A stretch of 64,000 bases of DNA from Dehalococcoidia bacterium (GTDB lineage: Bacteria; Chloroflexota; Dehalococcoidia; GIF9; AB-539-J10). The translations under genes were made by a program, and so were the position numbers. Positions 7,680 to 51,479 of this stretch are shown in pieces. The stretch's first letter is position 1; the number at the start of each line of letters is the position of its first letter. The DNA is taken from NCBI GenBank assembly GCA_034431195.1, contig DAOUDP010000025.1, forward strand, positions 20,220 to 84,219, in the 5' to 3' direction. The notes under the pieces were generated by a model. That model did no database searches. It was not told the origin of the DNA and was given only the letters and a program-made list of their open reading frames with translations.

Positions 7680-7759
7680 CCAAGAATTAGTGCTACCATT
7701 GTGCTCCCTAGACAGTTGACAATGTCGCCTTTTGGAGCGGGTATAAAGGAGGGTGAGAA

Positions 7760-9079: not shown

Positions 9080-9095
9080 GGTCTCTATATTGATG

Positions 9096-11270: not shown

Positions 11271-11412
11271 TTCGTATTCTCCGCCAGCGAGATTAATTCG
11301 CTACACTCGCAATAGCACCCCAAGGGAGAAATCATAAATCCCAATTTAGTAGCCATCAGCTTCATACTGACCGTTTTTCATTCTTGCTCTGTCATTTTGC
11401 CTTTTGATTTTC

Positions 11413-11628: not shown

Positions 11629-11641
11629 AGTTGAGTAAAAA

Positions 11642-12521: not shown

Positions 12522-13127
12522 TCACTGTGCCACAAGCTCCATGCCCTTGTTGAACGCCACCATATTGGTATCAAATTTTTCCCCAGGAAAGCTTTCCCGC
12601 AACACTAATTCCATCGATTTCTTATCAATGGGGAAGATGCCAGAGCCAACTAAAGCACCGATGAGTATCATATTGGCGAAGATAGGGTCACCCAGTTTCA
12701 TTGCTTCATCAGTGGCATTTATCAGCCATGATTTAGCTGATAATCCTTCGATAGCCTCGACGATCTTATCCAGGCTTGGGTATTCCATCCCAGCGGCATG
12801 TATCAGTCTGGAGTTGGCTATGGTGATAACATCGGAATTTCCGAATTGCTGCAGTATTCGCAGAGTTTCTACAGGTTCCATGCCAAGGATGATATCAGCA
12901 CGCCCATTGGGAATAAACGGGCTATACTCAGTTTCCCTCGAGATTCTCAAATGGCTCATAACACTGCCGCTTCGTTGAGATGCCCCATATGTTTCTCCAA
13001 TGGTCACGAAGTACCCTTCCCTTATGAATGCTTTACCGATAAGCAGTGATATCATCACGTTTCCCTGTCCACCAACGCCAGCGATAATTAAATTGAGTGG
13101 GTCTTTCGTTAATGTCTTCATAATCAT
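12522..13127 (-). CDS. iorB: Indolepyruvate:ferredoxin oxidoreductase beta subunit
   Basis: AGVGGQGN, GASQRSGSV.SH, NMILIGAL; ATGA overlap with the iorA stop. Confidence 0.9.
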   Translation of the reverse strand: MIMKTLTKDPLNLIIAGVGGQGNVMISLLIGKAFIREGYFVTIGETYGASQRSGSVMSHLRISRETEYSPFIPNGRADIILGMEPVETLRILQQFGNSDVITIANSRLIHAAGMEYPSLDKIVEAIEGLSAKSWLINATDEAMKLGDPIFANMILIGALVGSGIFPIDKKSMELVLRESFPGEKFDTNMVAFNKGMELVAQ

Positions 13128-15067: not shown

Positions 15068-15089
15068 CTCCTTAAACTTGCCTCCATTT

Positions 15090-24072: not shown

Positions 24073-24990
24073 ATGAAAGCCGCTACTAAAGAATTTCTTA
24101 AGATGGCTGGGGGGTGGAGGCGTTTAGACCGGGCTTTGCATGGCTATGTCTATTATGTTCACTATGATGGGTATGTCAGAGTTGTTCTGAGGCTTGGCAG
24201 ATGGCTTGTAAAACATTTTCCACGCTCTAGATTTTTAAGAACGGCGTATGATTACCTCTTCAATAGATATCACGCCAAGATTCTGAGAGAGGAAGATGCA
24301 AAGAAATTCGTTATGCTCCATAGGGATATTCATGCGGACCCATCAATTGCTGAACAGATTATTCCTTTTAAAATTGCAAATAAAATCGTTCTCGAAAATC
24401 CCGAATACATAGCAGTCACCGATTGCCCCTGTCGTCTGGAGAAGAACCCTGCTTATCTAAAAGAGCATAATGATCTGCCAGTCAATGTCTGTGTAGCGAT
24501 TGGTAAGACCACCGTAAATTTTTGGCTTGAGAAAATACCACAGCGACATACAAGAAGTATCACCAGCGAGGAAGCTCTGCAAATCATTGCCGATGGGCAC
24601 AAAAAAGGTTGGATTAACACCATTTGGCTTAAAGATGCCACTGGCGGTAGAACGGGCATTTTATGCAACTGTTCCAAATGGTCTTGTGGAGGAATTGAAG
24701 CTATGAAGCTGGCGGGGCTGTTAAAACGAACAGGACCAAAATCCCCCAATATACTTATTCCCTCTGGTTATGTGGCCAGGCTGGATGAGAAGAAGTGTAT
24801 CGGCTGTGGAACATGCGTTGAAGTCTGCCCGTTTGATGCCTGTAAACTCAATCCGGATACACAGAAAGCGGAAACAGTCTATGACAAGTGTATGGGCTGT
24901 GGTGCTTGTGTAGATTTCTGTAAAGGAGAAGCGAGAGAGCTGGTGTTGGATCCCAACAAGGGCATACCATTAGACCTTGATAAACTTTAA
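24073..24990 (+). CDS. 4Fe-4S dicluster protein with additional Cys-rich domain
   Basis: DCPCR, VCVAIG, CNCSKWSC, CIGCGTCVEVCP, CMGCGACVDFC. Confidence 0.85.
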   Translation: MKAATKEFLKMAGGWRRLDRALHGYVYYVHYDGYVRVVLRLGRWLVKHFPRSRFLRTAYDYLFNRYHAKILREEDAKKFVMLHRDIHADPSIAEQIIPFKIANKIVLENPEYIAVTDCPCRLEKNPAYLKEHNDLPVNVCVAIGKTTVNFWLEKIPQRHTRSITSEEALQIIADGHKKGWINTIWLKDATGGRTGILCNCSKWSCGGIEAMKLAGLLKRTGPKSPNILIPSGYVARLDEKKCIGCGTCVEVCPFDACKLNPDTQKAETVYDKCMGCGACVDFCKGEARELVLDPNKGIPLDLDKL

Positions 24991-25111: not shown

Positions 25112-26272
25112 TCACAGGGGTTCCGCTACAACTTGGGAAATATCCTTGACGGCTAGCTTGCCTTCTAGATCCTCCACTTTTATGGCATCCCGGAGCATGG
25201 TCATGCAACTGGGACAAGCAACTGCCAGGATATCAGCTCCAGTTTCGTAAGCTTCTCTAACTCTAATCCTGCTGGGACTTTCTTCGCTTCCCGCCAGGAG
25301 ATCGGTAACAAAATTACCGCTCCCCCCACCACAGCAGAAAGAATTTTCCCTGCTCCGTTCCATTTCCACTAGTTCAATTCCGGGGATGCTTTGCAAAATT
25401 TCCCGCGGCTCATCGTATATTTGGTTATACCTTCCCAGGAAGCAAGGGTCATGATAAGTGACTTTAGCGTTGTGCTTGGATGGTTTTATTTTATTTGACC
25501 AAAGCGAAGCACGCAGGAGCTGAGTGTAATGATATACCTCAAAATATGTGTTACTGACTAGTGGATAATTATTTCTGATCGTGTTATAGGCATGCGGCGA
25601 AAGTGTAACTACCTTTTTGACACCGAGCTCTTTGAACTTCTGGACATTCTTCTCAGCCAGCACTCGAAATAGCTCATTTTCTCCAAGCAGATATACTTCG
25701 TTCCCACAACAATTCTCTTCATTGCCAAGGATTCCAAAAGATATTCCTGCTTTACTCAGTAGCGTGGCAACGCTCCTGGCCATTCTTTGTCCAGATTCAT
25801 CATATGAGCCGAGACATCCCACATACAACAGATATTCATCACCTGTTTCATATCTTTTTATTCCATTTGCCCAGGCATCTCTTCTACCCCTCTCCTTCAA
25901 TGGATTTCCAAGCCGGTAAACATCCTCTAGAAAACTGGAGACAGCGGGCGGTATCCTGCCTTTTTCTTTCTCTATCACGTCGCTTCTGGCAGCCACTATC
26001 CAATCGACGATGTCGCTGGCAAACTTCATTGGACATTGTTCCACGCAGTTCTTACATGTTGTGCAGGAGTACAAAATCTCGGCCAGGTGTTCTGACCACT
26101 CAACTTCACCCTTTAGCCATGCATAAATGAGCCATAGTCTGCCACTGGTGGAATAGGTGTCAAAGCGGAACCTGGCGTAAGAAGGACAGTTAAAATCTGA
26201 ATAGTCCGTGGGGAATTTACAATATCCGCATCTAAAGCATCTATGGATTTGCTCAGCATATTGCTTCATCAT
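25112..26272 (-). CDS. (Fe-S)-binding CCG-domain oxidoreductase (GlcF/HdrD-like)
   Basis: CFRCGYC..CP, CTTCKNCVEQCP, CCG, YHDPC.LGR, CCGGG, ACPSC; ATGA overlap at 26272. Confidence 0.9.
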   Translation of the reverse strand: MMKQYAEQIHRCFRCGYCKFPTDYSDFNCPSYARFRFDTYSTSGRLWLIYAWLKGEVEWSEHLAEILYSCTTCKNCVEQCPMKFASDIVDWIVAARSDVIEKEKGRIPPAVSSFLEDVYRLGNPLKERGRRDAWANGIKRYETGDEYLLYVGCLGSYDESGQRMARSVATLLSKAGISFGILGNEENCCGNEVYLLGENELFRVLAEKNVQKFKELGVKKVVTLSPHAYNTIRNNYPLVSNTYFEVYHYTQLLRASLWSNKIKPSKHNAKVTYHDPCFLGRYNQIYDEPREILQSIPGIELVEMERSRENSFCCGGGSGNFVTDLLAGSEESPSRIRVREAYETGADILAVACPSCMTMLRDAIKVEDLEGKLAVKDISQVVAEPL

Positions 26273-27654
26273 GCTGACATGTCCCAATTTCCTGGATTCA
26301 TAATTCCGTTAGGGTCTAATAGCTGCTTTATCTTTTTCATGATCTTCAGCGTATTAGGGTTCATCCTTTCCACTATCATTTTCTGTTCACCCACGTTTGG
26401 CTTCCACATGATCCCTCCTTGCTCTATGGAGAACTCGGCTGCTTCGTGCAGGGCTTTCCTGACCCTATCCATCTCATCAGGGTCAGCCCGATTGAATGTA
26501 AAAGCAAAGGCAAACATCATGCAGTGCCCCCCGGCAATAACTCGCCCTACGGTAGAATAAGAGAGGTTGTATTTTGAAGCAAGCTCTACCGTTTTTGTAA
26601 CAAATGTGGGGTACTTGTCGATCGGGATAATCGGTCCGCTGTATTCAAATCCACCCCCCTTTCTCACATCGGCAAATCTGGTGGTGTCCTTTGATGGCAT
26701 AGCCAGATAAGGTGGCTTCATGATTGGTGGGAGACTCATGAATCCCCCATCTCTGCTGTCAAAGTACTCCCAAAGCGTATCCCATAACATCTTCCTCTTG
26801 AATTCCAGCTCTTCATCCGAGTCGCCGGTTATATATATCAGCATGTTATAATTTTCTCTCAACATTAGCGGTAATGGCTGAAAATTGACCACTATGTCTT
26901 CTACCATTTCGGTATCGCTGAGTTTGAGCACGATGTTGGCAACCAGCTCCCCTCTATCAATTAAGAATAGCATAACGTCTCTCATTTTCTTGCAGGGATA
27001 AAGCCTCAGGGCTAACTTGGTGATGATGCCTGTGGTGCCGAACCATCCTAGAAAGAGTCCAGTCAGGTCAGGCAGCGGAGCCCCTTTTGAAAACCAGTAG
27101 GGGGATACGGAACACGAGCCAATTCGGCAAATCTCACCCGTGGGCAACACCACTTCTAGACCACTGACGAGGTCAGAATTAAAGCCGTATTGCTGTGCCA
27201 GACGCCCTTGACCATGTATTACTGCGTTACCCACTATTGTGGCTATTGGTGGTGAGTCAGGTATACTGTGCCTTAAGTGGGGATAACGCTTTTCCAGATA
27301 GCTTTTGAGCACACCATGTGTAGTGCCAGCTTCAACAATGACGTATCTGGCTTTCTCATTTACCTCTAGTATCTTTCCCATTCTTTTCGTATCTATTACA
27401 ATTCCGCCCCTCTGAGGAACGACCAGGCCGGTTAATGCCAGACCTCCTCCCTTTGGAACTATTGGTATTTTCTCTTTATTTGCCAGTTTGACTATCTCTT
27501 GCACTTCCTCGGTTGTCTTTGGCATCACTACATAGTCTGGTTCATGTGGTGTGGTTAATCCAGGATCTCGGCTGTAGAAATAACGCTCCTCTTTCTGGTT
27601 TGAAACATACCTCTCTCCAACTATGCCAACAAGGCGCTCATAAATATTAGTCAT
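26269..27654 (-). CDS. FAD-binding oxidoreductase (GlcD-like)
   Basis: PKGGGL, ATIVGNA..HG.G, VLPTGE, GTTGIITK, DPNGIMNPG; GGAGG RBS at 27654. Confidence 0.88.
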   Translation of the reverse strand: MTNIYERLVGIVGERYVSNQKEERYFYSRDPGLTTPHEPDYVVMPKTTEEVQEIVKLANKEKIPIVPKGGGLALTGLVVPQRGGIVIDTKRMGKILEVNEKARYVIVEAGTTHGVLKSYLEKRYPHLRHSIPDSPPIATIVGNAVIHGQGRLAQQYGFNSDLVSGLEVVLPTGEICRIGSCSVSPYWFSKGAPLPDLTGLFLGWFGTTGIITKLALRLYPCKKMRDVMLFLIDRGELVANIVLKLSDTEMVEDIVVNFQPLPLMLRENYNMLIYITGDSDEELEFKRKMLWDTLWEYFDSRDGGFMSLPPIMKPPYLAMPSKDTTRFADVRKGGGFEYSGPIIPIDKYPTFVTKTVELASKYNLSYSTVGRVIAGGHCMMFAFAFTFNRADPDEMDRVRKALHEAAEFSIEQGGIMWKPNVGEQKMIVERMNPNTLKIMKKIKQLLDPNGIMNPGNWDMSA

Positions 27655-27658
27655 AGCC

Positions 27659-28687
27659 TCACGCCTCCAATGCTGGCTTTTCGCCAATTGCCATTTTGCA
27701 TAAGTCGATCATATGGATTGGCTTTATCCCGCTTTTGGCAACTTTTTCATCTATATTTAACTGACACATGGGGCAGTTGAACACGCAGTATTCGGCTTCA
27801 GCTTTTAGCATGTCCTCTATGTTTCTCTTTTGCACATCGTCTGCCAGCTTATAGCCTTGGCCCATCCTGATAACCTCGGCACAGCAGAGAGCGTTCTCGC
27901 GGTCGTATTCTCTTTCAATTCTATCAGCTCCTACTAGCTTAAATATGTCGTCCACAAAGTGCTCTGTCTGGGGGCTGAGGCGGGTGGAACAGTTTCGCAA
28001 GTAGGCCACCTTAACATTCAGTGGCTTTATTTCACCCTTAAGTTCCTTCAGCTTATCGTATAGATATTCGAAGTAATGAGTGGTCTTAAATGGCACTTCG
28101 ATGTCGTAGGCTGGTGCCAGTGAGTTAAATGTGCCGTAACATTCATCGTGGAGACATATGAGTTCCTTGATCCCCAGCTTTGCGATATTTTCTATTACTT
28201 TGGGAAGTCTGTCTTTTATTACTGACATTCTGGCGTAATGCAGGTAAACAGCATTGCAGAAAAACTCCTGACCGTAAATATAGGACGAGGCGATACCTTC
28301 AAAAAGCCTTCCTGTAGCCAGGAATGCAAATTGAGGAATAAAGCAGCATGATAATGCCCTCTCCTCGACTTTGCCTATTCGGAACTTTCCTACAGGTTGA
28401 CATTGGTTAATCCACATTCTGATGATGGGCTTGGGGGCAGGTAATATGCCCTTTTCTTCCTGACGCTCAACGATCAAGTAAAATGGATGATTTCCCATCT
28501 TACAGTATTCTTCACAGGCATAGCATGTGACGCAGTCATGTAGCACAAAAGAATCTTCACCATTGATTATCTTTTGCATCTCTGTCTTTGCCTTGTCCTT
28601 GTCTAGGTGCAGATATTGGCATTTGACAAGGCAATCCTGAGTCTTACAGACAGTGCATTTCGCTGGATCAAAATTCAATTGAAGCAC
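27659..28687 (-). CDS. (Fe-S)-binding CCG-domain protein
   Basis: CTVC...CLVKC, CVTCYACEEYC, CLHDEC, LRNCS, CCAE, NCPMC. Confidence 0.85.
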   Translation of the reverse strand: MLQLNFDPAKCTVCKTQDCLVKCQYLHLDKDKAKTEMQKIINGEDSFVLHDCVTCYACEEYCKMGNHPFYLIVERQEEKGILPAPKPIIRMWINQCQPVGKFRIGKVEERALSCCFIPQFAFLATGRLFEGIASSYIYGQEFFCNAVYLHYARMSVIKDRLPKVIENIAKLGIKELICLHDECYGTFNSLAPAYDIEVPFKTTHYFEYLYDKLKELKGEIKPLNVKVAYLRNCSTRLSPQTEHFVDDIFKLVGADRIEREYDRENALCCAEVIRMGQGYKLADDVQKRNIEDMLKAEAEYCVFNCPMCQLNIDEKVAKSGIKPIHMIDLCKMAIGEKPALEA

Positions 28688-32574: not shown

Positions 32575-32659
32575 GGGGAAGTGTCGGAATTGGCAGACGA
32601 GCATGACTTAGGATCATGTGCCGTAAGGCGTGGGGGTTCGAATCCCCCCTTCCCCACCA
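32575..32659 (+). tRNA. tRNA-Leu (anticodon TAG)
   Basis: GGGGAAG/CTTCCCC acceptor stem, CATGA-CTTAGGA-TCATG anticodon arm, long variable arm, GGGGG-TTCGAAT-CCCCC T arm, encoded CCA. Confidence 0.97.
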
Positions 32660-33036: not shown

Positions 33037-34695
33037 TTGTATTCTAAGTTTATGGCTAGAATGAGAGATCCAGCAGCTCAACAAACTACTAAGACTGTGG
33101 GATTTGACATGAACTTGCATGACCTTGTCGGTGGCTTAGAGGACGAGCTTCTCATCGTCAATAGTGAATATCAAGTCAGCTTTGCTAACTCAGCTATGCA
33201 GCACAGGTTGCCTGAGGGCACTGAATCACCTGTCGGTAGGCATTGCTACGAAGTCTTCGAGGGGAGGGATAAGCCCTGCAGCGCCCCTCTGTGGGAGTGT
33301 CCGCTTAGGGATGTATTGCAGAGCGGCAACTCGGCAAGCGTCATTCATCCTTATCCCTCCCCCAGCGCAGGTAGCACCTTGGGTAGATATGTCAAGATTA
33401 CCATGTGGCCACTCAAAGATAGTCATGGCGGGATTGATGCAGCGGTTGAGTTGAGGAGAGATGTTACTGCAGAGAGAGAACTGGAAGTGCAGATTCTGAG
33501 GCGACATCACCATCTTGATGCTTTAAGCCGTATTTCTTTTGCTGTTAGTGGGTTATGGGATTTAGATGCTATCCTAAATGTAGCATTTGACACCGTGTTA
33601 CAGATCTTTGGCGGAAGCACAGGAGGAATCCTGCTTTTTGATGAAAAAGTCCAAAAGCTATGTTACAAAGCGCACCGTGGCCTTTCTGCCAAATACGCTG
33701 GAGAGATGTGCCTGACCATGGGTGGGGGAATAGCGGGAAAGGTGGCTCAAACGGGTGAGCCTATTTTGTTGGAAGATATTTCTAGAGATCCAGATGCTGC
33801 TCGCCCTGATTTGATAGCCGCAGAGGGTCTTAAGGGATTCGTTAGTGTCCCTTTGAAAGCAAAGGACAAGGTTTTGGGCGTGATGAATGTTGCCAGCCAT
33901 CTGGCGGGCAAATTCACCTCAGATGATATGTACCTCCTGAACTCAATTGCTTGCCAACTTGGCACGGCAATCGAGCAGGCAAAGCTATATGAACAGTTGA
34001 GTGAAGGAAAGGAAAGATACCAGATACTGCTGAGGCAGGCTCTTACTATCCAGGAACAGGAGCGAAAAAGAATTGCCAGAGAGCTACATGATGAAACAAG
34101 TCAAGAGCTTACTGGCTTGGCGCTCAACCTGCAGGCAGTTAATGAAATGATGGAAATGGGCGGCGTCGAAGATGCTGAAATTAAGGCAATATTGAAAAAG
34201 ACTCAGTCCCTAGCAGTCCATGCAGGCACCGAGTTAACCAAGCTCATAAGGGAGCTCCGCCCCACTCTATTAGATACATTGGGGCTGCCCGCTGCTATTC
34301 ATCAGCTTGCCGAGGCTAACCTCAGTTCTCAAGGCATTAATGTGTCATCAGAGTTTGGAGGAATTGACCGGAAGTTACCGTCGGAAATTGAGTTGGCGTT
34401 TTTCCGCATTACCCAGGAGGCTATGAGCAACATTATAAAGCATTCAGAGGCAAAGAATGCCAGTATCAAAATAGAATGTAATGCTAAAAGATGTATTTTA
34501 CGGGTTGAGGATGATGGCAAGGGGTTTGATGTTGGCAAGATCACAAGCATTGACAGGAGAGGTCGTGGTGCTGGCCTATTCGGCATGAAAGAAAGGGTAA
34601 AATTAGTAAGCGGCACTTGTTCTATTGATTCCCAGCCTGGGCAAGGGACTAGAGTTATCGTCAAGGTTCCAATAAGGGGGAGCGCAGCCGATTGA
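33037..34695 (+). CDS. PAS-GAF sensor histidine kinase (HisKA_3/NarX-UhpB type)
   Basis: PAS with CYEV..PC..CP, GAF, ERKRIARELHDE, QEAMSNIIKHS, DDGKGF, GLFGMKER. Confidence 0.93.
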   Translation: MYSKFMARMRDPAAQQTTKTVGFDMNLHDLVGGLEDELLIVNSEYQVSFANSAMQHRLPEGTESPVGRHCYEVFEGRDKPCSAPLWECPLRDVLQSGNSASVIHPYPSPSAGSTLGRYVKITMWPLKDSHGGIDAAVELRRDVTAERELEVQILRRHHHLDALSRISFAVSGLWDLDAILNVAFDTVLQIFGGSTGGILLFDEKVQKLCYKAHRGLSAKYAGEMCLTMGGGIAGKVAQTGEPILLEDISRDPDAARPDLIAAEGLKGFVSVPLKAKDKVLGVMNVASHLAGKFTSDDMYLLNSIACQLGTAIEQAKLYEQLSEGKERYQILLRQALTIQEQERKRIARELHDETSQELTGLALNLQAVNEMMEMGGVEDAEIKAILKKTQSLAVHAGTELTKLIRELRPTLLDTLGLPAAIHQLAEANLSSQGINVSSEFGGIDRKLPSEIELAFFRITQEAMSNIIKHSEAKNASIKIECNAKRCILRVEDDGKGFDVGKITSIDRRGRGAGLFGMKERVKLVSGTCSIDSQPGQGTRVIVKVPIRGSAAD

Positions 34696-35344
34696 GAAGA
34701 TAAGAGTGCTGGTGGTGGATGATCACACCATCGTGCGGGATGGCATCTGCGCTTTGCTGGCGTTGGCTGCAGACATAGAGGTGGTTGGCGAAGCAGAAAA
34801 TGGTAGGGAGGCGCTGGATAAGGTAAGACAGCTTGCCCCGAATGTGGTGCTTATGGATATAGCCATGCCTATTATGGATGGGCTGGAAGCGACACGTAGA
34901 ATACGCAAGGAATTCTCAAAAACAAAGGTGTTGGTGCTAACCCAATATGCTGAGAAGGAGTATATTTTCCCCATTATCGAGGCAGGAGCCCAAGGCCTCA
35001 TAAGCAAGGCAGCGGCATCTTCAGAGCTTACTTCGGGCATAAGGGCTGTCCACCAGGGCGATTCCTTCCTTTCTCCTGTCGCAGCAAAGGTTTTCGTTGA
35101 GGACTATCAGCGAGGAACTCCTGGGCGAGAAGAAGGAGATCCTTACCGCCAGCTGACAGACAGAGAAAGAGAGGTACTCAAGCTAGTTGCCGAGGGGTAT
35201 ACTACCAAGGAAATAGCAGATTTATTAGTAGTCAGCACGAAAACGGTGGAAGGACACAAGACCAATTTAATGGCTAAACTGGACATCCACAATAAGGCTG
35301 ACCTCGTCAAGTATGCCATACGCAAGGGCATCATAACTGTCTGA
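34691..35344 (+). CDS. NarL/LuxR-family response regulator (probable ATT start at 34691; GTG 34706 alternative)
   Basis: KIRVLVVDDH, LMDIAMP, LTDREREVLKL..EG.TTKEIA..L..S.KTV..H. Confidence 0.93.
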   Translation: MEKIRVLVVDDHTIVRDGICALLALAADIEVVGEAENGREALDKVRQLAPNVVLMDIAMPIMDGLEATRRIRKEFSKTKVLVLTQYAEKEYIFPIIEAGAQGLISKAAASSELTSGIRAVHQGDSFLSPVAAKVFVEDYQRGTPGREEGDPYRQLTDREREVLKLVAEGYTTKEIADLLVVSTKTVEGHKTNLMAKLDIHNKADLVKYAIRKGIITV

Positions 35345-35448: not shown

Positions 35449-35462
35449 GAGGGGAACCCCTC
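35449..35462. promoter_or_regulatory. Perfect palindrome GAGGGG-AA-CCCCTC, candidate operator for the NarL-type regulator
   Basis: Inverted repeat immediately upstream of the MTHFR operon; weaker look-alike at 35384-35396. Confidence 0.4.
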
Positions 35463-35493
35463 TTTTGTTTCACCCTAAGGCGAATTACCATAT

Positions 35494-37668
35494 ATGATGA
35501 ATAGTAAAGAAGCGGAGCTATGTTCATCCGAGAGGAAAACAATGTATTCAGCGGGTATCGATGCCTTTAAAAGTGACCACAGCGATGGTGTTAAGAAAAC
35601 CTCTTTTGACCATACGCTCATGCCTCCTTGCCAAGATGCTTGTCCCTTGCATATGGAGATTCGAGAATACGTTGATTTGATTGCCCAAGGGCGGGTGATG
35701 GAAGCATTGCAGGTCATAAGGGATGGCAATCCCTTTCCCTCCATCTGTGCCCATGTGTGCATCCATCCTTGCGAAGATGCTTGTCGGCGTGGTCAGGTGG
35801 ATAATTCCGTTGCCATCAGAGCACTGAAGAGGTTCGCTGTAGAATTCGGTGGCGATAGAATGATCCAACTGGAAGCTGAGACGAGACACGAGGAGAGGAC
35901 CGCCATAGTGGGATCTGGTCCAGCAGGATTGTCTGCTGCCTACTACCTAAGAAGGTTAGGCTATCCCGTAACCATCTTTGAGGCCTACTCAGAGCCCGGG
36001 GGGATGTTGCGGGTGGGTATCCCCAAATATCGCCTCCCGGGGGAGGTACTCGATACTGAGGTTCAAAGGCTGATCCAGATGGGGGTTGAAATCAGGACAA
36101 ATACGCCAGTAGTATCTCTGGATTTGCTGTTTGATATGGGCTACAAAGCCGTCTTCGTAACCGTGGGTGCTCATCAGGGTCTTAGATTGGGAATAGAAGG
36201 AGAGGACAGTCCTGGGGTGGTTGATGGGGCAACCTTCCTCCGTGAGGTGAACCTGGGGCTTAAACCATCTATTGGTGAAAGGGTTGCTGTGGTGGGGGGC
36301 GGCAATGTAGCGATTGATGCCGCCCGCGCAGCACTCCGATTGGGCGCAAGGGAGGTAAGAATCCTCTACCGCCGCAGTCGGGAAGAAATGCCAGCAGACC
36401 CTGCAGAAATAGAGCAAGCAATAGAGGAGGGAGTAGAAATTCTATTCTTGGCAACACCAACTAAGATAGCAAGAGAGGATAGACAGTTGGGACTAACCTG
36501 TATACGTATGGAGCTCGGTGAGCCGGATGCTAGTGGCAGGCGCCGGCCAATACCCATCCAAGGCAGCGAATTCAATATGGGGATTGACACCCTAATTACT
36601 GCTATTGGCCAAGCGCCACAAATTCCCGGTGATTTCCGTCTCCGCATTGGCAGAGGCAGCACTATTCAAGTTGATCCCATCACTCTCACCACCAATCGGG
36701 TGGGAGTTTTCGCTGGAGGCGATGCCATCACCGGACCGGCAACCGTAGTTCAGGCATTGGCAACTGGTAGGGGGGCAGCTTCCCGCATCGACGACTACCT
36801 CCAGCATAGATATCCCTTAGTTAGCAAAGATGAGAAGGAAACCCTAGCAGGCGAGCTTCTCCCCAAAACTATAGAGATGATAAGGAAGCTTACCCGCTTT
36901 GAGCCGCTAACCGTTTCTCCCGAAGCAAGGGTGAAAGAGTTCGAGCTCGTGGAGCTTGTTTATGACTGGGAAAGCGCCATCAACGAAGCCAGGAGATGCC
37001 TGCGCTGCGGCATGGGCGCTGAGATCTTGTTCCAAGACAAATGTGCTACCTGCCTCACCTGTTTGCGAGTTTGTCCCTATCACGTGCCCTACCTGGACGA
37101 CAGCGGCACCATCCAGATACCTGCTGATCAGTGTCAAGCCTGCGGTATATGCGTGGCCGAATGCCCTGCTAAGGCTATAGTTTTGCGCAAGCCACAGGAT
37201 CGTCGGCAGATAGATGAGGAGTTAGATCATGTCCTTAAGTCTGCGGCACAGGCGAAGTCCAAGCCCTTGATTATTGGCTTCTCTTGTCAATACGGGCTTT
37301 ACGGCACTGGTGCCCTGGCGAGCTTATGGAGGGGGGCTAAAGCTGGCATTTGGATAGTACCTGTCCTGTGTGTAGCCAAGATAGAAGCTGAGCACATATT
37401 GCAGGCCTTTGAGATGGGTGCTGAAGGCGTTTTTATTGCTGGATGTGGGCAAGAACAGTGTGCCAGGGAAGATACTGCTTTCTGGGCGTTACAGCGGATG
37501 GAAAAAGCCAAGAAGGTGTTAGCTCAGATTGGTCTTGAACCACAACGCCTGCAAGCCTTTAACTTATATGCCGATGGAGAGGATCCTGCCACGGCGTTAG
37601 ATAAGTTCACTGAGCGAATAGGAGAGTTCTACTTGGCTTCAGCAATAAAGCAGGAGGTGAAGACTTGA
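35494..37668 (+). CDS. GltD/SudA-like NAD(P)H flavoprotein fused to 2x[4Fe-4S] and MvhD domain (start possibly 35542)
   Basis: PCQDACP..C..VC..PCEDAC, GSGPAG, GGGNVAID..YRR, CLRC, CATCLTCLRVCP, CQACGICVAECP, MvhD-type FSC..VLC..GC...C. Confidence 0.88.
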   Translation: MMNSKEAELCSSERKTMYSAGIDAFKSDHSDGVKKTSFDHTLMPPCQDACPLHMEIREYVDLIAQGRVMEALQVIRDGNPFPSICAHVCIHPCEDACRRGQVDNSVAIRALKRFAVEFGGDRMIQLEAETRHEERTAIVGSGPAGLSAAYYLRRLGYPVTIFEAYSEPGGMLRVGIPKYRLPGEVLDTEVQRLIQMGVEIRTNTPVVSLDLLFDMGYKAVFVTVGAHQGLRLGIEGEDSPGVVDGATFLREVNLGLKPSIGERVAVVGGGNVAIDAARAALRLGAREVRILYRRSREEMPADPAEIEQAIEEGVEILFLATPTKIAREDRQLGLTCIRMELGEPDASGRRRPIPIQGSEFNMGIDTLITAIGQAPQIPGDFRLRIGRGSTIQVDPITLTTNRVGVFAGGDAITGPATVVQALATGRGAASRIDDYLQHRYPLVSKDEKETLAGELLPKTIEMIRKLTRFEPLTVSPEARVKEFELVELVYDWESAINEARRCLRCGMGAEILFQDKCATCLTCLRVCPYHVPYLDDSGTIQIPADQCQACGICVAECPAKAIVLRKPQDRRQIDEELDHVLKSAAQAKSKPLIIGFSCQYGLYGTGALASLWRGAKAGIWIVPVLCVAKIEAEHILQAFEMGAEGVFIAGCGQEQCAREDTAFWALQRMEKAKKVLAQIGLEPQRLQAFNLYADGEDPATALDKFTERIGEFYLASAIKQEVKT

Positions 37669-38348
37669 TAGTTGCAGAGCAAAAACCTTTAGGGGAAATA
37701 AAACGCCTGATTGCTCCTTACGAGAAGGTGTTAATCCTTGGCTGTGGTACCTGTATGACTGTTTGTGGTGCTGGTGGGGAAAGAGAGGTCTCCTTGCTTC
37801 ACAGTGCATTGAAGGTGGCCCAGGCTAGAGGTGGAAATGAGGCTCATAGTTTTTTGGAATACACAGTGAAGCGGCAGTGTGATTTTGAATTTCTGGACAT
37901 GCTCGAGGATAGGGTCGGGGAGGTGGATGCCATTCTCTCGCTAGGTTGTGGCATTGGTGTGCAGGTGATAGCTGAGCGTTTCCCAGGTATACCTGTTTTG
38001 CCTGGCGTCGACACATCTTTTATGGGTGCGTCTAAGGAGTGGGGTGTTTGGGATGAGCGATGTGCCGCTTGTGGCGAATGCAGACTGGATGAAACTGGTG
38101 GTATTTGTCCCATCACCAGGTGTGTTAAGGGCATACTTAATGGTCCCTGTGCGGGCAGCAAAAGTGGAAAATGCGAGGTGAGCAGCGACATGGACTGTGC
38201 CTGGGTACTGATTTATGAGCGACTGGAGAGGTTAGGGCAATTGGAAAAAATGCGCCGATATTACCCTCCTAGGAACTTTCGGACAATCCCCAGGCCGAGA
38301 AGGATCGTGAGCAAGGCTGACATTGATCTGGGAGGAAACGATGGCTAA
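37665..38348 (+). CDS. metV: MTHFR-associated Fe-S/Zn protein MetV
   Basis: LGCGTC.TVC..GG, KRQCD, GCGIGVQ, CAACGEC, GICPITRC.KGILNGPCAG, CAW. Confidence 0.88.
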   Translation: MIVAEQKPLGEIKRLIAPYEKVLILGCGTCMTVCGAGGEREVSLLHSALKVAQARGGNEAHSFLEYTVKRQCDFEFLDMLEDRVGEVDAILSLGCGIGVQVIAERFPGIPVLPGVDTSFMGASKEWGVWDERCAACGECRLDETGGICPITRCVKGILNGPCAGSKSGKCEVSSDMDCAWVLIYERLERLGQLEKMRRYYPPRNFRTIPRPRRIVSKADIDLGGNDG

Positions 38349-39246
38349 ATCACTTTTTGAGGAAAGACTCAATTCCGGTAAGTTTTTGGTGACCACTGAG
38401 ATTGGGCCTCCCAAGGGAACAGACATCTCAGAAATGGTTCACCATATAGAGCTACTTAAGGATAAGGTTGATGCTATTAATGTCACCGACCATCAAAGTT
38501 CCGTGATGAGGTTCCCTTCCTTGGGTGGCTGTCTCTTGGTGAGGGAACATGGTGGTGAACCTGTATTTCAGATGACCACCCGTGACCGCAATCGCCTGGC
38601 GCTTCAAGCCGACCTCCTTTTGGCATATTCCAGGGGCATCAGGAATGTGCTTTGCCTCACTGGCGATTCTGTTGATGTCGGCGACCACAAGGAAGCAAAA
38701 CCAGTGTTTGACCTGGATTCTGTGCAGCTATTAAGAATGATCAGGATAATGGAATCAGGGAAAGATCTAGCAGGGAATGATCTCAAGGGCGCCCCAGAAT
38801 TCTGTATCGGTGCCTCAGTTCACCCCGCGACAGATTCCATCGAGCCACAACTTATCAAGTTTGACAAGAAACTGGAGGCCGGGGCGCAGTTCTTCCAGAC
38901 CCAGGGCGTATATGACCTAGATTGCCTCCGCAGGTTCATGCAGTATGCCTCCCAATTTAACGTCAAAATCCTGGCAGGCATTATAGTTCTGGCTTCAGCG
39001 AGGATGGCTCAGTATATGAACGACAATGTCCCTGGGATAGTTGTTCCCCAAGCTGTAATCGATGAGCTGGCTGGTGCAGAAAAGGGCAAGGGACTTCAGA
39101 AGGGCATTGAAATTGCTGTGCGGTTGATGAAGATGATAAAGGACGAGAATTTGTGCCATGGAGTTCATATTATGGCGGTAGGGAGGGAAGGCATTGTCCC
39201 CGATATTTTGGAGGCTGCTGGACTGGAAGTCAGCGTGCACGTTTAA
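38341..39246 (+). CDS. metF: 5,10-methylenetetrahydrofolate reductase
   Basis: TEIGPPKG, NVTD, RDRNR.ALQ, NVLCLTGD, KKLEAGAQFFQTQ, GVHIMA; GGAGG RBS, ATG 38341. Confidence 0.93.
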   Translation: MAKSLFEERLNSGKFLVTTEIGPPKGTDISEMVHHIELLKDKVDAINVTDHQSSVMRFPSLGGCLLVREHGGEPVFQMTTRDRNRLALQADLLLAYSRGIRNVLCLTGDSVDVGDHKEAKPVFDLDSVQLLRMIRIMESGKDLAGNDLKGAPEFCIGASVHPATDSIEPQLIKFDKKLEAGAQFFQTQGVYDLDCLRRFMQYASQFNVKILAGIIVLASARMAQYMNDNVPGIVVPQAVIDELAGAEKGKGLQKGIEIAVRLMKMIKDENLCHGVHIMAVGREGIVPDILEAAGLEVSVHV

Positions 39247-39320: not shown

Positions 39321-40121
39321 ATGGGAAACGCCAAAAAAGTCTTAATCGTAGACGATGAACCCGATTTTCTGTTAGCTTTGCAGAGGACTATGGAAGCAAG
39401 ACAATATCAGGTTACTACTGCCAGCAACAAGGCAGAGGCACAGGAAGGAATCAAGAAAGAGGAGCCCGATATCATCATTCTGGGCACAATGACTCCCCGT
39501 GGAGAAGCATTCTCGCTGCATCAATGGTTAAGGCAACATCCCGGGACTAGGGACTTGCCTATCCTGGTGGTCGACGCTGCCCCGGAAAGGCAACTTATCA
39601 AGGGGTGGAGAAGGGACGAGGCTGTGATGATGGAGGCTGAGGACTACATAACCAAGCCGATTGAACCAGCTTCACTAGCGCTTCGAACCCAGGCGATACT
39701 GGAGAGAGCAGCCAAACGGATAAAAGTGCTCATAGTGGATGACCATTCTGTGGTCAGGGATGGGGTTCGTGCTGTGCTCATGCTGCAAAAAGACATTGAG
39801 GTAGTAGGTGAAGCTGTGGATGGGAAAGATGCAGTGGAGAAAACAGGCCAGCTCTTGCCTGACGTGGTGGTAATGGACATAGTCATGCCTGTAATGGACG
39901 GGTTAGAGGCCACTAAGCAGATATACAAGGAATATCCTCAAATCAGAGTTGTGATGCTGTCACAGTACGATGACGAGGAGAACGTCGCTGCCGCTGAGCA
40001 GATAGGAGCCTATGGATTCATCCCTAAGAGGGCGGCCAGCTCCCAACTCATAAATGGCATAAAAACCATATACTATATGGGAGAGCATCTCCAGAGACCC
40101 GCAAAAGTTTCTAGCGACTGA
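39321..40121 (+). CDS. Tandem receiver (REC-REC) protein without output domain
   Basis: N-terminal VLIVDD...IIILGTMTP (no phospho-Asp); C-terminal VLIVDDH...VVVMDIVMP. Confidence 0.85.
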   Translation: MGNAKKVLIVDDEPDFLLALQRTMEARQYQVTTASNKAEAQEGIKKEEPDIIILGTMTPRGEAFSLHQWLRQHPGTRDLPILVVDAAPERQLIKGWRRDEAVMMEAEDYITKPIEPASLALRTQAILERAAKRIKVLIVDDHSVVRDGVRAVLMLQKDIEVVGEAVDGKDAVEKTGQLLPDVVVMDIVMPVMDGLEATKQIYKEYPQIRVVMLSQYDDEENVAAAEQIGAYGFIPKRAASSQLINGIKTIYYMGEHLQRPAKVSSD

Positions 40122-40253: not shown

Positions 40254-41784
40254 CCTGAATTTGGATATCCTATCTTTTCATCAATGAGGCAAAAAACTTC
40301 TTTCCCTGTACCAAATAGGGTCAATTTCTGATGAAAAGCGAAACCGCCCTCCCCCTACTTTATAAGGGCATCAAGAAGGGGGTTTATCCTTTAAAGGCTA
40401 GCCATAAGCTAATTCATAGCATCTCAAGCGAAATTTGCAGAACAGAATTACCTTGTCTAATGCTGATAGCTTAAGCAGCATCTGGTGGGCATGCTTGACT
40501 ACTGTCCCTGCTCCTTGATAAAGCCTCCATCTTGCTGTTGAGATGGTAAAGGTGCGATGCCATGGTGGTAAAGCCAGTAGCTTCATGGCTAAAAAGAGGT
40601 TATAGGCGATAATTCCTATCCTGAGGAACACTGCGTTGGCATAAGTCTCACCACAGGGCATCCAGTTCATACCAAAGCCATCCTTTAGTTTCTTAATGAA
40701 ATTCTCTGCTCGTCCTCTTTGGTTACGGAGATGCACTATATCCTCAGTCGGCTCCTCTCTATTGGTGGCGATGACATGATAGGAGTAGGGGTTAGAATCA
40801 AATAGCTCTCCCTGTAGTTTTGGCCAGCGTTGCACTACAAGCCGAAATGCTTCCCTCGTATTATTCATGGTGTGAATTGTCTTAGCTATCTCTCCGCCTC
40901 CCTCATAAGACTGCCAACCTTCTTCCCCTATACTTTTAATAGTCCCCTTCACTGCTTTGTCCTGATCGGCAGTCATAGTAAAAAGTATGTCATGCTCAAA
41001 GCAGTAGTTTATTACTGCAGCCTGACAAGCAGCGCTATCTGAACGATAATATCTTATCCTCTTCCCCTGAAGCATAATATTTTCACAGTACTTGATAAAC
41101 TCTAACGCTCCAGCCTCAGCAGGAACATTCTCGTCACGAAATTCATCTCCTGAGGCCAAACTTGGTTCGAAAAGGAAGCCTGAAAGGGGTTGATAACCCT
41201 TTTCTTTTTTATAACTCCATTTTGCCTCTTCCTTCTCTGCTTCTATTACTGTAGCATCAGTGTCCAGGGTATATTCTTTTCTCGGTTCTCTGTTTAATGC
41301 CTCATTCACCATATGTCTATTTAGCCTAGCTAGTCCGAGAAGTCCTCTACCATCCTGACCCATGCGTCTTAGCCAATCCCCTACAGTGCACGAGGCAGGA
41401 AGCTCTTTCGTCTCCACTAGTCCCCTCAGGCTTATCTCAGCCTTTAGTTCCCTCAAATCTTCAAGTTTCTTCCCACCTCCGTGAAGCGTCAGCACCAGAG
41501 CTATAACAAATTGAGATGGCTTATATCCTCGACCACTAGCTGGTTTTGGTAATTCACTATCCATAACCTTTGGTAACTTCAGTGCTTTTGCTAGCTCGTA
41601 AGGAGCACTAAGCCGCCTCTGGCAGCTAAAGGTTCATCTGTTGCTACTAGCTTGAAGGGTAGAATCCCTTCCCTATGCCTTTTAGTCATTTTTCACCTCC
41701 AGGGTTGCCTAATTTTGCTGCTTACTATAATACAATTGCCAGGCCTCTTGTAGCTAAAATGAGCTCGCAATCGCTGATTTCAGG
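40254..41784 (-). mobile_element. IS1380-family insertion sequence (about 1.53 kb)
   Basis: Ends CCTGAATT.. (40254) and ..ATTTCAGG (41784) share CCTGAA-T; encloses a DDE transposase; no TSD seen. Confidence 0.7.
40398..41689 (-). pseudogene. IS1380-family DDE transposase, frameshifted near codon 29
   Basis: GGAGGTG RBS + MTKRHREGILPFKL..ARGGLVL, then frameshift to YELAKALKLPKVMDSELP; LDTDAT, RSDSA, RGRAENFIK, NAVFL motifs. Confidence 0.8.
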
Positions 41785-49267: not shown

Positions 49268-51193
49268 ATGGAACAAAGCGAAATGGCTGTTAATGAATTA
49301 GGGGAAGAAGAGAGGCTAGAGAGAGACAGCTTTACTAGTTACCGTCGGAGCTACCACTTTGCTAGGGAAAGCTCCAGCAACACCTGGGGAGCCAGACTGG
49401 AAAGGATAGTTCAGGTTATCCCCGACAAATTAGCCTTTGTTCAAGGCGATAGAAGGCTTACCTGGAAGCAATTTAATGAGCGGGTAAACAAATTAGCTAA
49501 CGGGCTGTTTAACTTGGGGATTAAGAAAGGAGAGCGAGTAGGTATTGCTGGGTTCAACTCCATAGAGTGGGTGGAGTCCTACTTTGCCATATCCAGGATT
49601 GGTGCTGTTCCGTTCAACTTAAACCCCCGGACTACCCTTGATGAGATAGCATACATAATTAAGGATGCCGATGCGGTGGCGATGATAGTGGAAGATGAGT
49701 ATGCCCGCGTTATAGAAAGGGTAATTGAAGGAATAGCCTCGTTAAGGTATTTCATAGTTTATGGCACGGCTAGGTCGCCACAGTATGTGCCCCGTGGGGC
49801 ACTTGACTATGACGTCTTGATGGCAAAGTATCGGGCTAGAAAGCCAAAGCTAGGTTATAGGGTGACGAACGAGGACTTTTGCTATCTAATGTACACTAGT
49901 GAAAAGACTGGATATCCCAAAGGAGTGGTGTGGGATAGTGAACAAAGGGTGAAGGGTGTTGAGCAACTTATTTACAATGTTTTGTTACCCCCATTTGACA
50001 GGTATGGTGATGAGAAAATTTTTGAGTTTCTGTTTAATTTATATCCTCTACTAGGACTTAGAACATTATCCCGTTTGAGCCGTCGTTTTGGCTTTATTCG
50101 TGTGGCGGTAATCAGGTTCTTTAGGATGACATGGGGAAAAGGTTTGATGGCCGACATAGGCAGGCGTCTCAAGAAGGAGGGGGTCAAGTATGTTCCAGTC
50201 TGCCCTTTGTTCCACGCAAGTGCCTATATGCAGACTTTTGGTATGGTTGCTGCAATTGGAGCTACTACAGTCTTCCTTCCCACTCCCTATCCGTTCAATG
50301 CCAGGGAACTTTTGGAAACAATAGAGAGGGAGAAGGTGGATGGCGTCATGATAAATGGAGATGCCTTCGCTCTGCCAATCCTGGATGAATTGAAGAAGGC
50401 GAAGGAGGAGGGTAGAACATATGACCTCTCATCGTGCCGAAGTATAGCATCTTCGGGAGTAAGGTGGTCACCTCGCACTAAAAAGGAACTTTGTAAATTC
50501 TTGCCTCAGGTCGTAGTAATGGATGCATATGGGTGCACAGAGTTTAGCGTTGGTTATGGGTCGGCTGCTGTCCTGGAGGATAAAGAGCTGCCCTGTGCTG
50601 GAGCTACGCTTCCTGCTAGAGGCGGAGTATACTCCCTACAAGTCCCTTTCAAGGTTATCAATCGTGAAACAGGGCAGGAGGTTACGCCCGGAACAGGAGA
50701 GGTGGGAGAATTTGCTGCTGCGGGATATGTGTCTCTAGGATACTGGAAGCGTCCTGCTGACACTAAGAAGGCTTTCAGGGTCATAGATGGCCGAAGGTGT
50801 TTCTTTACTGGAGACGATGGTTATATTGATGAGAGATTGCGGTTCTGTCTTGTAGGAAGAGGAGGCAAGGAATGCATAGATACAGGGGAGGAAAAGGTCT
50901 ATAGCGAGGAGATAGAGGAGTTCATCAAGTCTCATCCTAAAGTGAGGGATGCTGCTGTTATGGGGGTTCCTGATAGAGAGCTGGGCCAGGTGTTAGCTGC
51001 TGTTATTGAGGTGGATGAAGGGGAGGAATTAAGCGAGCGTGATGTAGTGGAGTACTGTAGCCAAGGCCTTCCGGCGCATAAAATACCAAAGCATGTAATG
51101 TTGGTAGTGTCTCTTCCCAGGGAGGCAACTGGCAAGGTGGAGAAGAGGGTGCTAAAGGAATTTGTTGAGTCTAGACTGGGAGGGGAAGCGTAA
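49268..51193 (+). CDS. AMP-dependent acyl-CoA synthetase-like protein 1 (divergent)
   Basis: YTSEKTGYPKG, PLFH, YGCTE, TGD, GR, TGKVEK; long insert after the A3 motif. Confidence 0.85.
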   Translation: MEQSEMAVNELGEEERLERDSFTSYRRSYHFARESSSNTWGARLERIVQVIPDKLAFVQGDRRLTWKQFNERVNKLANGLFNLGIKKGERVGIAGFNSIEWVESYFAISRIGAVPFNLNPRTTLDEIAYIIKDADAVAMIVEDEYARVIERVIEGIASLRYFIVYGTARSPQYVPRGALDYDVLMAKYRARKPKLGYRVTNEDFCYLMYTSEKTGYPKGVVWDSEQRVKGVEQLIYNVLLPPFDRYGDEKIFEFLFNLYPLLGLRTLSRLSRRFGFIRVAVIRFFRMTWGKGLMADIGRRLKKEGVKYVPVCPLFHASAYMQTFGMVAAIGATTVFLPTPYPFNARELLETIEREKVDGVMINGDAFALPILDELKKAKEEGRTYDLSSCRSIASSGVRWSPRTKKELCKFLPQVVVMDAYGCTEFSVGYGSAAVLEDKELPCAGATLPARGGVYSLQVPFKVINRETGQEVTPGTGEVGEFAAAGYVSLGYWKRPADTKKAFRVIDGRRCFFTGDDGYIDERLRFCLVGRGGKECIDTGEEKVYSEEIEEFIKSHPKVRDAAVMGVPDRELGQVLAAVIEVDEGEELSERDVVEYCSQGLPAHKIPKHVMLVVSLPREATGKVEKRVLKEFVESRLGGEA

Positions 51194-51382
51194 TAACTAT
51201 CTTGAGCATGAAGTAGACGAGGTAGGGTGGTGGGGCGAGCCTTATTGTGACATTCGCGGTAGAAGGACATACGCATTGTCTAAGCCTGCTTGACTATTCC
51301 AGTGCCGAGAAAGCAGTTTGCCTATTTCTCGTGAATAATGCTTTGCTGATCTCAAGGTAATCCCCACTTTGCTGATGTCCTC

Positions 51383-51391
51383 TGGTATAAT
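51383..51391 (+). promoter_or_regulatory. Possible extended -10 promoter for ligase 2
   Basis: TG-G-TATAAT about 90 nt upstream of the GTG start. Confidence 0.35.
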
Positions 51392-51479
51392 ATTTGAGAG
51401 ATTGTGTAACGTGATGCGATGGTCAGGTAGAGGGATATTGTGGATTTGGAGAAACCTGAAAAGGTTTAGAAAACGGTGA

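Follow-up and report, generated by a model that had tools for sequence, protein, structure and literature searches.

We analysed a stretch of 64,000 nucleotides (nt) from a Dehalococcoidia bacterium, here called the window (contig DAOUDP010000025.1 of assembly GCA_034431195.1, positions 20,220 to 84,219 of the forward strand), with a focus on three adjacent genes. Their products are a fusion protein composed of a GltD/NfnB-like core, a ferredoxin domain and an MvhD domain, the MetV protein, and MetF, the catalytic subunit of methylenetetrahydrofolate reductase (MTHFR). The three genes occupy the middle of a six-gene cassette that opens with a sensor histidine kinase and a response regulator and closes with a second regulator, which consists of two receiver domains (Table 1). 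The gene, domain and motif content, the gene overlaps and the conservation of the neighbourhood described below are direct observations; every functional claim rests on sequence and gene context. The flanking two-component system probably controls expression of the operon. A hairpin in the spacer upstream of the fusion gene is possibly a terminator or attenuator that splits the cassette into two transcription units. It was the only noteworthy candidate in a promoter and terminator scan of 32.8–40.5 kb, where the counts were not above those in shuffled sequence, and a search of the same spacer for a riboswitch or leader RNA found no match to any Rfam family.

The start codon of metV (TTG 37665) overlaps the TGA stop of the fusion gene by 4 nt (TTGA) and is preceded by a Shine–Dalgarno (SD) sequence, AGGAGGTG. 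The start of metF (ATG 38341) overlaps the stop of metV by 8 nt and follows the SD sequence GGGAGGA. The fusion, metV and metF genes, each preceded by an SD sequence, are thus translationally coupled across both junctions; the coupling had been proposed in a first-pass annotation of this DNA. The set of open reading frames (ORFs) given in that annotation also stands, although two of its starts do not: the fusion more likely begins at ATG 35542, behind the SD sequence GAGAGGAAA, a start that agrees with homologue lengths of 707–708 residues within an overall range of 699–708, and metF begins at 38341 rather than 38323. Residue numbers of the fusion are nevertheless counted from 35494 (the 724-residue frame) throughout. 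MetV matches PF12225 (DUF5981, Pfam E = 5.7e-36), and its gene directly adjoins metF; a PDB sequence search with MetV matched no solved structure. MetF matches PF02219 over profile positions 2–287 of 287 (Pfam E = 1.1e-38) as well as the C-terminal half of the NCBIfam model PRK08645, and its matches among PDB sequences are weak ones to NAD(P)H-type MTHFRs. In MetVF-type reductases MetF is reported to carry flavin mononucleotide (FMN) and to have no NAD(P)H site of its own (Bertsch 2015).

Table 1. Positions of the cassette genes, the domains of the fusion protein and two further gene clusters in the window (residue ranges refer to the 724-residue frame)
Feature	Window position	Strand	Residues or length	Basis or remark
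Sensor histidine kinase, first cassette gene	33037..34695	+		Pfam PAS_4-GAF-HisKA_3-HATPase_c
NarL/LuxR-type response regulator	34706..35344	+		Pfam receiver domain and GerE
GC-rich hairpin and T-run	35449..35470	+		Consensus scan; 150-nt spacer between regulator and fusion genes
ORF 1, fusion gene, longest frame	35494-37668	+	724 aa	
Fusion gene, likelier start	35542..37668	+	708 aa	ATG 35542 (M17)
Fer4_20 N-terminal Fe-S domain	35623..35847	+	44-118	Pfam E=9e-19; Cys 46, 50, 85, 89, 93, 97
FAD and NAD(P)H domains	35899..36804	+	136-437	Pfam Pyr_redox_2 E=1e-29 (136-425)
YRR triplet	36367-36375	+	292-294	Motif position
NfnB/NfnI-L N-terminus-like segment	36907..37011	+	472-506	Carries C502xxC505
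2x[4Fe-4S] ferredoxin domain	37027..37188	+	512-565	Pfam Fer4_7 (516-561), Fer4_10, Fer4_9
MvhD/FlpD domain	37261..37626	+	590-711	Pfam FlpD E=3e-22 (593-711)
ORF 2, metV	37665-38348	+	227 aa	DUF5981/MTHFR C-terminal-like Fe-S/Zn subunit
ORF 3, metF, longest frame	38323-39246	+	307 aa	
metF, likelier start	38341..39246	+	301 aa	ATG 38341; catalytic methylenetetrahydrofolate reductase subunit
Response regulator, two receiver domains, no output domain, last cassette gene	39321..40121	+		Pfam Response_reg x2
LUD, Fer4_8 and CCG cluster (CCG 9096-11270)	9096-12310	-		Pfam; lactate-utilisation type, plus LUD protein
GlcD-like FAD oxidase and two CCG proteins	25112-28687	-		Pfam

The N-terminal two thirds of the fusion resemble the flavoproteins GltD and NfnB. 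The first-pass annotation had described an Fe-S core of this type binding flavin adenine dinucleotide (FAD) and NADPH, and its motifs can be located precisely: the first Rossmann fold has GSGPAG, while GGGNVAID and YRRS occupy residues 268–275 and 292–295, respectively (YRR at 292–294). Each of the six cysteines of the N-terminal Fe-S domain is kept in at least 115 of 120 close and at least 128 of 136 distant homologues. Residues 472–506 (SPEARVKEFELVELVYDWESAINEARRCLRCG) align with residues 12–43 of NfnB (4ylf_B) and residues 18–47 of NfnI-L (5jca_L). Because this segment matches the N-terminus of NfnB and NfnI-L yet follows the flavin domains, the core is circularly permuted; an equivalent permuted segment is present in NfnA of NfnABC (9n5u residues 562–595). 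The two cysteines of the segment, C502 and C505, are conserved in 100% of the homologues and probably complete the eight ligands needed for two [4Fe-4S] clusters in the N-terminal domain. The two further clusters that had been predicted for the ferredoxin domain correspond to two CxxCxxCxxxCP motifs (C517/520/523/527 and C547/550/553/557), whose eight cysteines are invariant or nearly so, with a single exception, at C547, among the 120 close homologues.

The best NCBIfam model for the fusion is the GltD-like PRK12771, which covers residues 14–565 at 505.3 bits against a curated cut-off of 516. A sequence search of the PDB gave 396 bits for NfnA (9n5u_A) and 291 bits for NfnB (4ylf_B), and the alignment of the C-terminal ferredoxin domain falls on the stretch of 9bov_A by which the cluster wire is extended. 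An AlphaFold2 (AF2) model built from 56 sequences and confident overall (pLDDT, the predicted local distance difference test, 84.2; pTM, the predicted template modelling score, 0.84) has as its top PDB matches NfnA of NfnABC, StnA, NfnB/NfnI-L, Xfn, GltD and dihydropyrimidine dehydrogenase. The GGGNVAID...YRRS motif type is common to the solved NADP(H)-binding modules 5jca_L, 4ylf_B, 9bov_A, 9n5u_A and 8oh5_C, and since the YRR motif is shared with them we assign NADPH as the predicted electron donor, in agreement with the first-pass annotation. YRR is present in 114 of 120 close and 112 of 136 distant fusions; a covarying CLE replaces it in 6 of the close and 24 of the distant ones (SLE in one of the 24; examples are P0125 and P0142), which may reflect a switch to NADH specificity within the family. 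We found no gene for an NfnA/PyrK-like small subunit (with its [2Fe-2S] cluster, FAD and NAD site) in the cassette or its annotated flanks, and Pfam detected no Complex1_51K or RnfC domain in the cassette.

The MvhD domain at the C-terminus aligns with the MvhD chains 5odc_D, 9sfi_K and 8rvu_F and is confidently modelled by AF2. It contains exactly four cysteines, C598, C626, C651 and C656, the number already noted in the first-pass annotation, and these are invariant within the window's own family. Stand-alone MvhD proteins have five conserved cysteines (FxCxxC...C...CxxxxC), so that the window retains four of the five; the second cysteine of the CxxC pair is replaced by Gly601, and glycine occupies this position across the whole Dehalococcoidia family. 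Ser597 (TCT, 37282–37284), immediately before C598, is a cysteine in 19 of 20 sampled relatives. Among distant compact fusions, the corresponding positions hold four cysteines in 51 of 136 and Asp-Gly-Cys-Asp ('DGCD') in 62 of 136.

Published MTHFRs fall into four types, namely MetF, MetVF, RnfC2-MetVF (type III) and HdrCBA-MvhD-MetVF (type IV) (PMC8760232, PMC9430772). The window's locus had been annotated as devoid of the Hdr subunits of the last of these, and our searches agree. No HdrA core was detected in the fusion by Pfam, NCBIfam or structure searches, and no HdrA chain occurs among the 50 structural matches listed for the fusion model. The HdrA2 and HdrA models of NCBIfam match residues 513–711 only, that is, the ferredoxin and MvhD tail, and a 74-residue match links the fusion's linker to the segment that follows the GltD insert of a large HdrA. 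The GltD-like core, the linker resembling the NfnB N-terminus, the 2x[4Fe-4S] domain and MvhD together take up all 724 residues, and there is consequently no room for an HdrA core of ~400 residues. Metagenomic loci of the hdrCBA-mvhD-metVF type supplied HdrA, HdrB and HdrC queries, whose identity was checked by Pfam; these were compared by tblastn with the window and 877,680 bases of related loci, so that the absence of Hdr reported here covers the fusion, the 64-kb window and the flanks of related loci. hdrABC is absent from the cassette in 78 related loci with ~0.88 Mb of flanks. Of the related loci, L083 alone gave Hdr proteins; it is from Thermoleophilia and codes for a protein of the HdrL type in place of the compact fusion. 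The C-terminus of HdrA also drew two short matches of the ferredoxin type (in L040 and at 24700–24966 of the window), neither of which is an Hdr protein. The search also matched the window's own CCG proteins; these are HdrB/HdrD-like and belong to lactate/glycolate-type clusters, not to hdrABC.

The exact sequence of the window's fusion protein has no entry in the contig index. The conservation of the locus was assessed in a census that used one genome per GTDB species. Of 173 relatives found, 80 loci were kept, nearly all of them from metagenome-assembled genomes (MAGs) of Dehalococcoidia/Dehalococcoidales, and 78 of the 80 carry a fusion at least 60% identical to that of the window. When only loci with enough flanking sequence are counted, MetV directly follows the fusion in 63 of 63 (truncated in one) and MetF is present after it in 62 of 63. 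The double-receiver regulator is found downstream in 57 of 58 loci, and the PAS-GAF histidine kinase and the LuxR-type regulator upstream in 55 and 54 of 56, respectively. Genes outside the cassette vary between loci, which indicates that the six genes are maintained as a unit. In L011 and L077 the cassette is followed by folD and fhs, and in L023 and L082 by folD before the contig ends; acs, cooS, fhs and folD were not found in the surveyed parts of the window. An insertion sequence (IS) transposase (DDE_Tnp_1_4; 40398–41564, minus strand) lies right after the window's cassette, in the position of folD/fhs in some relatives. On a Dehalococcoidia scaffold of 1.77 Mb (L056, 8151–8400) metV ends after ~42 codons and metF is gone; there are no Ns at the break, which therefore represents a rearrangement or an assembly join. 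Another locus (L001:1, contig Ga0568915_0000013) has a second, stand-alone MTHFR (PF02219, 296 residues) ~10 kb upstream of the cassette, and organisms that bear the cassette may thus possess two methylene-tetrahydrofolate (methylene-THF) reductases.

When clustered at 50% identity, the whole Dehalococcoidia fusion family forms one cluster, and the next relatives are at most 48% identical. About 25 further 50%-clusters share the fusion architecture at lengths of 630–705 residues, and members retrieved by the profile search include MAGs of Nitrospirota, Brocadiales, Deltaproteobacteria, Desulfobacterales and Thermodesulfobacteriota. The pairing with metVF noted in the first-pass annotation extends to these other phyla: at 36–48% identity, the fusion still comes before metV-metF in every resolved context but one, among them Desulfobacterota-type, unclassified and archaeal-looking contigs. 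At least five lineages have the compact architecture, in many cases within acs/cdh operons. In the Wood-Ljungdahl cluster of L084 the gene order is cooC-folD-acsD-cooS-acsB-acsC-fusion-metV-metF-nuoE-acsE-nuoF-...-fdhA; L088 and L089 have acsC-fusion-metV-metF-thyX-cooC, and L086 and L087 have fusion-metV(-metF). L170 contains a second metV-metF pair, in the order fhs-hdrA-like-folD-cooS-fusion-metV-metF, two response regulators, a histidine kinase, and metV-metF-acsD-acsB. In L171 (5207–9103) and L172 (5214–9100), which look archaeal (cdhB/C/D, presenilin, archaeosine tRNA-guanine transglycosylase), the fusion is divergent from a fused MetV-MetF of 543 residues beside cdh genes for carbon monoxide dehydrogenase/acetyl-CoA synthase.

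Other metVF loci show how the fusion relates to larger systems. L133 is of the Moorella type, hdrC-hdrB-hdrA-mvhD-metV-metF, with an hdrA product of 1505 residues that contains a GltD insert, and L094 and L152 combine a large HdrA with mvhD and metVF. Aligned with the L133 proteins, the fusion runs colinearly with the GltD insert, post-insert linker and C-terminal ferredoxin domain of HdrA and with MvhD; judged by these alignments, the fusion arrangement is evolutionarily continuous with type IV. In every variant with MvhD, the MvhD gene or domain directly precedes metV. A profile scan of metagenomes with generic patterns yielded mostly GltD-like genes without MvhD, and these were used as a control. 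Among the control loci without an MvhD gene or domain near the GltD-like gene, metVF is adjacent in L132 only (2093–10564: an Fdh/NuoG-like protein of 901 residues, a NuoE-like protein of 160, a NuoE/NuoF-GltD fusion of 1041, metV, metF and a receiver-only regulator). L132 has no MvhD, and its metF is 66% identical to the window's; by domain content the locus has the look of a Bfu/Stn-type input module connected to MetVF, apparently one not yet described. A neighbour-joining tree of the GltD cores of 89 loci is star-like with long branches and scattered MetVF-linked cores, and at this depth it is uninformative as to whether the MetVF-linked modules form one clade.

Receiver-only regulators lie directly after metF in the window (39321–40121) and in L094 (13259–13639), L132 (10184–10564) and L170 (10732–11540). 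This recurrence suggests, from gene order, a conserved phospho-relay control of the MetVF-fusion enzyme across unrelated lineages. In the window, the second domain of the double-receiver protein is a paralogue of the receiver of the upstream LuxR-type regulator, with ~50% identity by tblastn.

These results lead us to favour, with modest confidence, the interpretation that the three genes encode one soluble NADPH:5,10-methylene-tetrahydrofolate oxidoreductase that operates in a linear mode, with the fusion as its electron-input subunit. NADPH would reduce, by hydride transfer, the FAD of the GltD/NfnB-like core, and electrons would leave this FAD singly by way of the pair of [4Fe-4S] clusters in the permuted N-terminal domain. 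They would then traverse the [4Fe-4S] pair of the ferredoxin domain and the cluster of the MvhD domain, from which they would reach the Fe-S centres of MetV and the flavin of MetF, where methylene-THF would be reduced to methyl-THF. The fusion would stand in for RnfC2 of type III, or for the GltD-containing HdrA together with MvhD, HdrB and HdrC of type IV. Complex formation, NADPH specificity, the order of the cofactors and the linear mode are what we infer from homology and gene order. In NfnABC, NADPH reduces the FAD of NfnA, electrons move single-file through the clusters, and bifurcation takes place elsewhere (Li 2025, PMC11829005); we favour the linear mode because both NfnA of NfnABC and StnA use the same FAD only to oxidise NADPH into a wire. 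In the Moorella HdrA, the NAD(P)H site was assigned to the GltD domain (Kremp 2022, PMC9430772).

Several observations weigh against this interpretation. One of the five cysteines of stand-alone MvhD is gone, which makes the cluster of the window's domain a putative one. In the 'DGCD' class three of the four MvhD cysteines are lost while metVF is still found downstream, for example in L170 (7001–9085). Since such fusions still precede metVF, the wire does not in every case include the MvhD cluster; the domain may serve chiefly for docking, with a cluster that some lineages can do without. The homologous FAD of NfnSL is a proven site of bifurcation, so that the linear mode is no certainty. Two loci depart from the usual gene order: L099 has its fusion flanked by ppdK and dnaG and lacks metVF for 7 kb around it, and in L091 metF comes straight after the fusion and metV was not detected. 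All relatives of the fusion are MAG or metagenome sequences with generic names. Finally, purified MetVF enzymes take reduced ferredoxin in vitro (PMC8760232, PMC9430772), from which it follows that MetVF could work without a fusion partner.

The same subunits might instead perform electron bifurcation or confurcation at the NfnB-like FAD, an alternative we regard as possible but doubtful. One branch would run through MvhD, MetV and MetF to methylene-THF (E0' about -200 mV) and the other through the N-terminal [4Fe-4S] pair to ferredoxin (Fd), for a net reaction 2 NADPH + Fd(ox) + methylene-THF -> 2 NADP+ + Fd(red) + methyl-THF, or its reverse if the pathway is oxidative. The locus would then encode the smallest flavin-based bifurcating methylene-THF reductase, in which three proteins with one NfnB-like FAD pass electrons from NADPH to methylene-THF and ferredoxin; as tentatively, the same compact enzyme could act in reverse and oxidise methyl-THF with the aid of ferredoxin. 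This notion is consistent with the homology of the core to NfnB/NfnI-L, including the permuted N-terminal CxxC segment, and with the presence of two separate cluster sets, which offer two possible exits from the flavin. The first high-potential acceptor at the bifurcating FAD of NfnSL is a [2Fe-2S] cluster, which MvhD would provide here. The fusion also occurs in Wood-Ljungdahl operons of energy-limited lineages, and the Desulfobacterota-type operons maybe run in reverse; bifurcation would save a drop of ~120 mV, which would be of value in such lineages. However, the closest solved relatives, NfnA of NfnABC and StnA, use the module linearly, the match of the ferredoxin domain to the wire-continuing part of 9bov_A suggests clusters in series rather than two branches, and the 'DGCD' class is without the putative [2Fe-2S] ligands. 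By analogy, there are precedents for both the linear and the bifurcating mode in close homologues.

It is improbable, in our assessment, that the fusion acts on its own, as a redox enzyme unattached to MetVF, such as an oxidoreductase between NADPH and ferredoxin or another acceptor that is merely co-regulated with MetVF and linked to it by a diffusible carrier. The use of reduced ferredoxin by purified MetVF and the L099 fusion fit such a scheme, as does the loss of MvhD cysteines in many homologues, which indicates that wiring through MvhD is not universal. Reduction of ferredoxin by NADPH alone would nevertheless be uphill, the stop/start overlaps and a gene order, fusion-metV-metF, that stays invariant from phylum to phylum commonly mark the subunits of a single complex, and the position of MvhD, always directly before metV, fits an adaptor role. 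We consider it very unlikely that the locus is an incomplete type IV system, in which HdrB/HdrC or HdrA encoded elsewhere joins the fusion and MetVF. Split hdr loci have been reported (Colman 2022, PMC9586279), and a joining of this kind was proposed for some Acetothermia, where hdrBC lies apart from metVF-hdrA-mvhD. The window does contain CCG-domain proteins (9096–11270 and 25112–28687), but these sit in LUD- and GlcD-type contexts on the other strand, 7–25 kb off. In the solved Mvh-Hdr complex HdrC and HdrB bind the HdrA core, which the fusion does not possess, and the flanks of the related loci contain no Hdr gene.

Elsewhere in the window (13124–16202, minus strand), a FrhB/FdhB-like protein of 370 residues is encoded beside a fused thiamine pyrophosphate (TPP) enzyme resembling 2-oxoacid:ferredoxin oxidoreductases, of 647 residues with a C-terminal Fer4 domain. 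The pair may constitute an F420-linked 2-oxoacid oxidoreductase; a similar FrhB-Pfor pairing has been reported from the anaerobic methanotrophic archaea ANME-1 (Chadwick 2022). A tandem pair of paralogues at 49268–53408 encodes AMP-binding, acyl-CoA synthetase-like proteins (641 and 642 residues), and a tRNA gene just upstream of the sensor kinase (32575–32656) is the window's sole Rfam match at gathering score.

The electron donor of MetVF, and the energy coupling of the very exergonic step it catalyses, are an open question in the bioenergetics of acetogens and the Wood-Ljungdahl pathway. Purification of the Moorella-type complex has so far not succeeded, and the second acceptor of this complex is not known (PMC8760232, PMC9430772). 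The three-gene system is small and suited to heterologous expression, which would test whether a GltD/NfnB-type flavin suffices for MetVF and whether it bifurcates, while the switch from YRR to CLE and the loss of MvhD cysteines amount to natural experiments in the choice of cofactor and in wiring. The finding also alters how the locus should be interpreted when the metabolism of abundant uncultured Dehalococcoidia is reconstructed. At present the fusion gene goes by the name 'FAD-dependent oxidoreductase' or is mislabelled 'formate dehydrogenase beta subunit'.

The full-text literature we searched, which is poor in subscription-journal papers, covers only MTHFR types I–IV and nowhere describes MetVF with a GltD/NfnB-MvhD fusion as its partner, in line with the suggestion of the first-pass annotation that this compact MTHFR is undescribed. 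Within the Chloroflexi, marine Anaerolineae have hdrABC-mvhD-metVF with flanking two-component genes, and metV was stated to be absent from Chloroflexi other than the marine subphylum I lineage described there (Sewell 2017, PMC5736913).

Among solved proteins, the NfnL-like domains of NfnA in NfnABC (9bov, 9n5u) and of StnA in StnABC (8oh5) are the best matches to the fusion (396, 386 and 357 bits; Foldseek E-values of 1e-51 to 3e-47). They share with it the permutation of the RCLxC segment to a position after the flavin domains, the YRR motif and an FAD that feeds a cluster wire (PMC11829005), but there the module is joined to an Fdh-like domain and NuoF/NuoE-like partners carry out the bifurcation, whereas in the window it is fused to MvhD and partnered by MetVF. 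NfnB/NfnI-L of NfnSL (4ylf_B, 5jca_L) and GltD have the same fold with two [4Fe-4S] clusters and FAD and the NADPH motif; the window differs in the lack of an NfnA/PyrK-like partner gene, the permuted N-terminal segment and the added ferredoxin and MvhD domains. HdrL of Desulfobacterium autotrophicum (PMC2702500) similarly combines GltD-like and Hdr parts, followed by MvhD, and HdrA2 of Methanosarcina (NF040770) has a C-terminal fusion of ferredoxin and MvhD, with residues 513–711 of the window's protein aligned to HdrA2 positions 575–770. Both of these keep a full HdrA core, and the fusion has none. In dihydropyrimidine dehydrogenase (1h7x and related entries) electrons likewise go from NADPH to a GltD-like FAD, through four [4Fe-4S] clusters, to a TIM-barrel flavin that reduces the substrate, although the barrel and the substrate are different, the enzyme is a single polypeptide, and there is no MvhD or MetV.

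The type III enzyme of Acetobacterium woodii, RnfC2-MetV-MetF, uses NADH and is reported to be soluble and not to bifurcate (Bertsch 2015, as cited in PMC8760232). It resembles the proposed enzyme in having three subunits, with one NAD(P)H-oxidising Fe-S flavoprotein placed on MetVF, and would be the closest functional analogue of the linear mechanism we favour. Its input subunit, however, is RnfC/NuoF-like (FMN, NADH), without the GltD/NfnB fold and without MvhD, whereas the window's fusion is predicted to use NADPH. The type IV enzyme of Moorella thermoacetica and Sporomusa ovata is HdrCBA-MvhD-MetVF (Mock 2014, as cited in PMC8760232; Kremp 2022, PMC9430772). Here the likeness extends to the MetV and MetF core, the position of MvhD directly before metV and a GltD-like Fe-S/FAD/NAD(P)H module, which in Moorella is an insert in HdrA. 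The window differs in that it is without the thioredoxin-reductase core and the N-terminal domains of HdrA and without HdrB and HdrC, its MvhD is fused and not a separate gene, and there are three genes instead of six. Since it lacks defining features of both types, the locus belongs to neither type III nor type IV; on the evidence of its sequence it is a MetVF-type reductase with a new input module.

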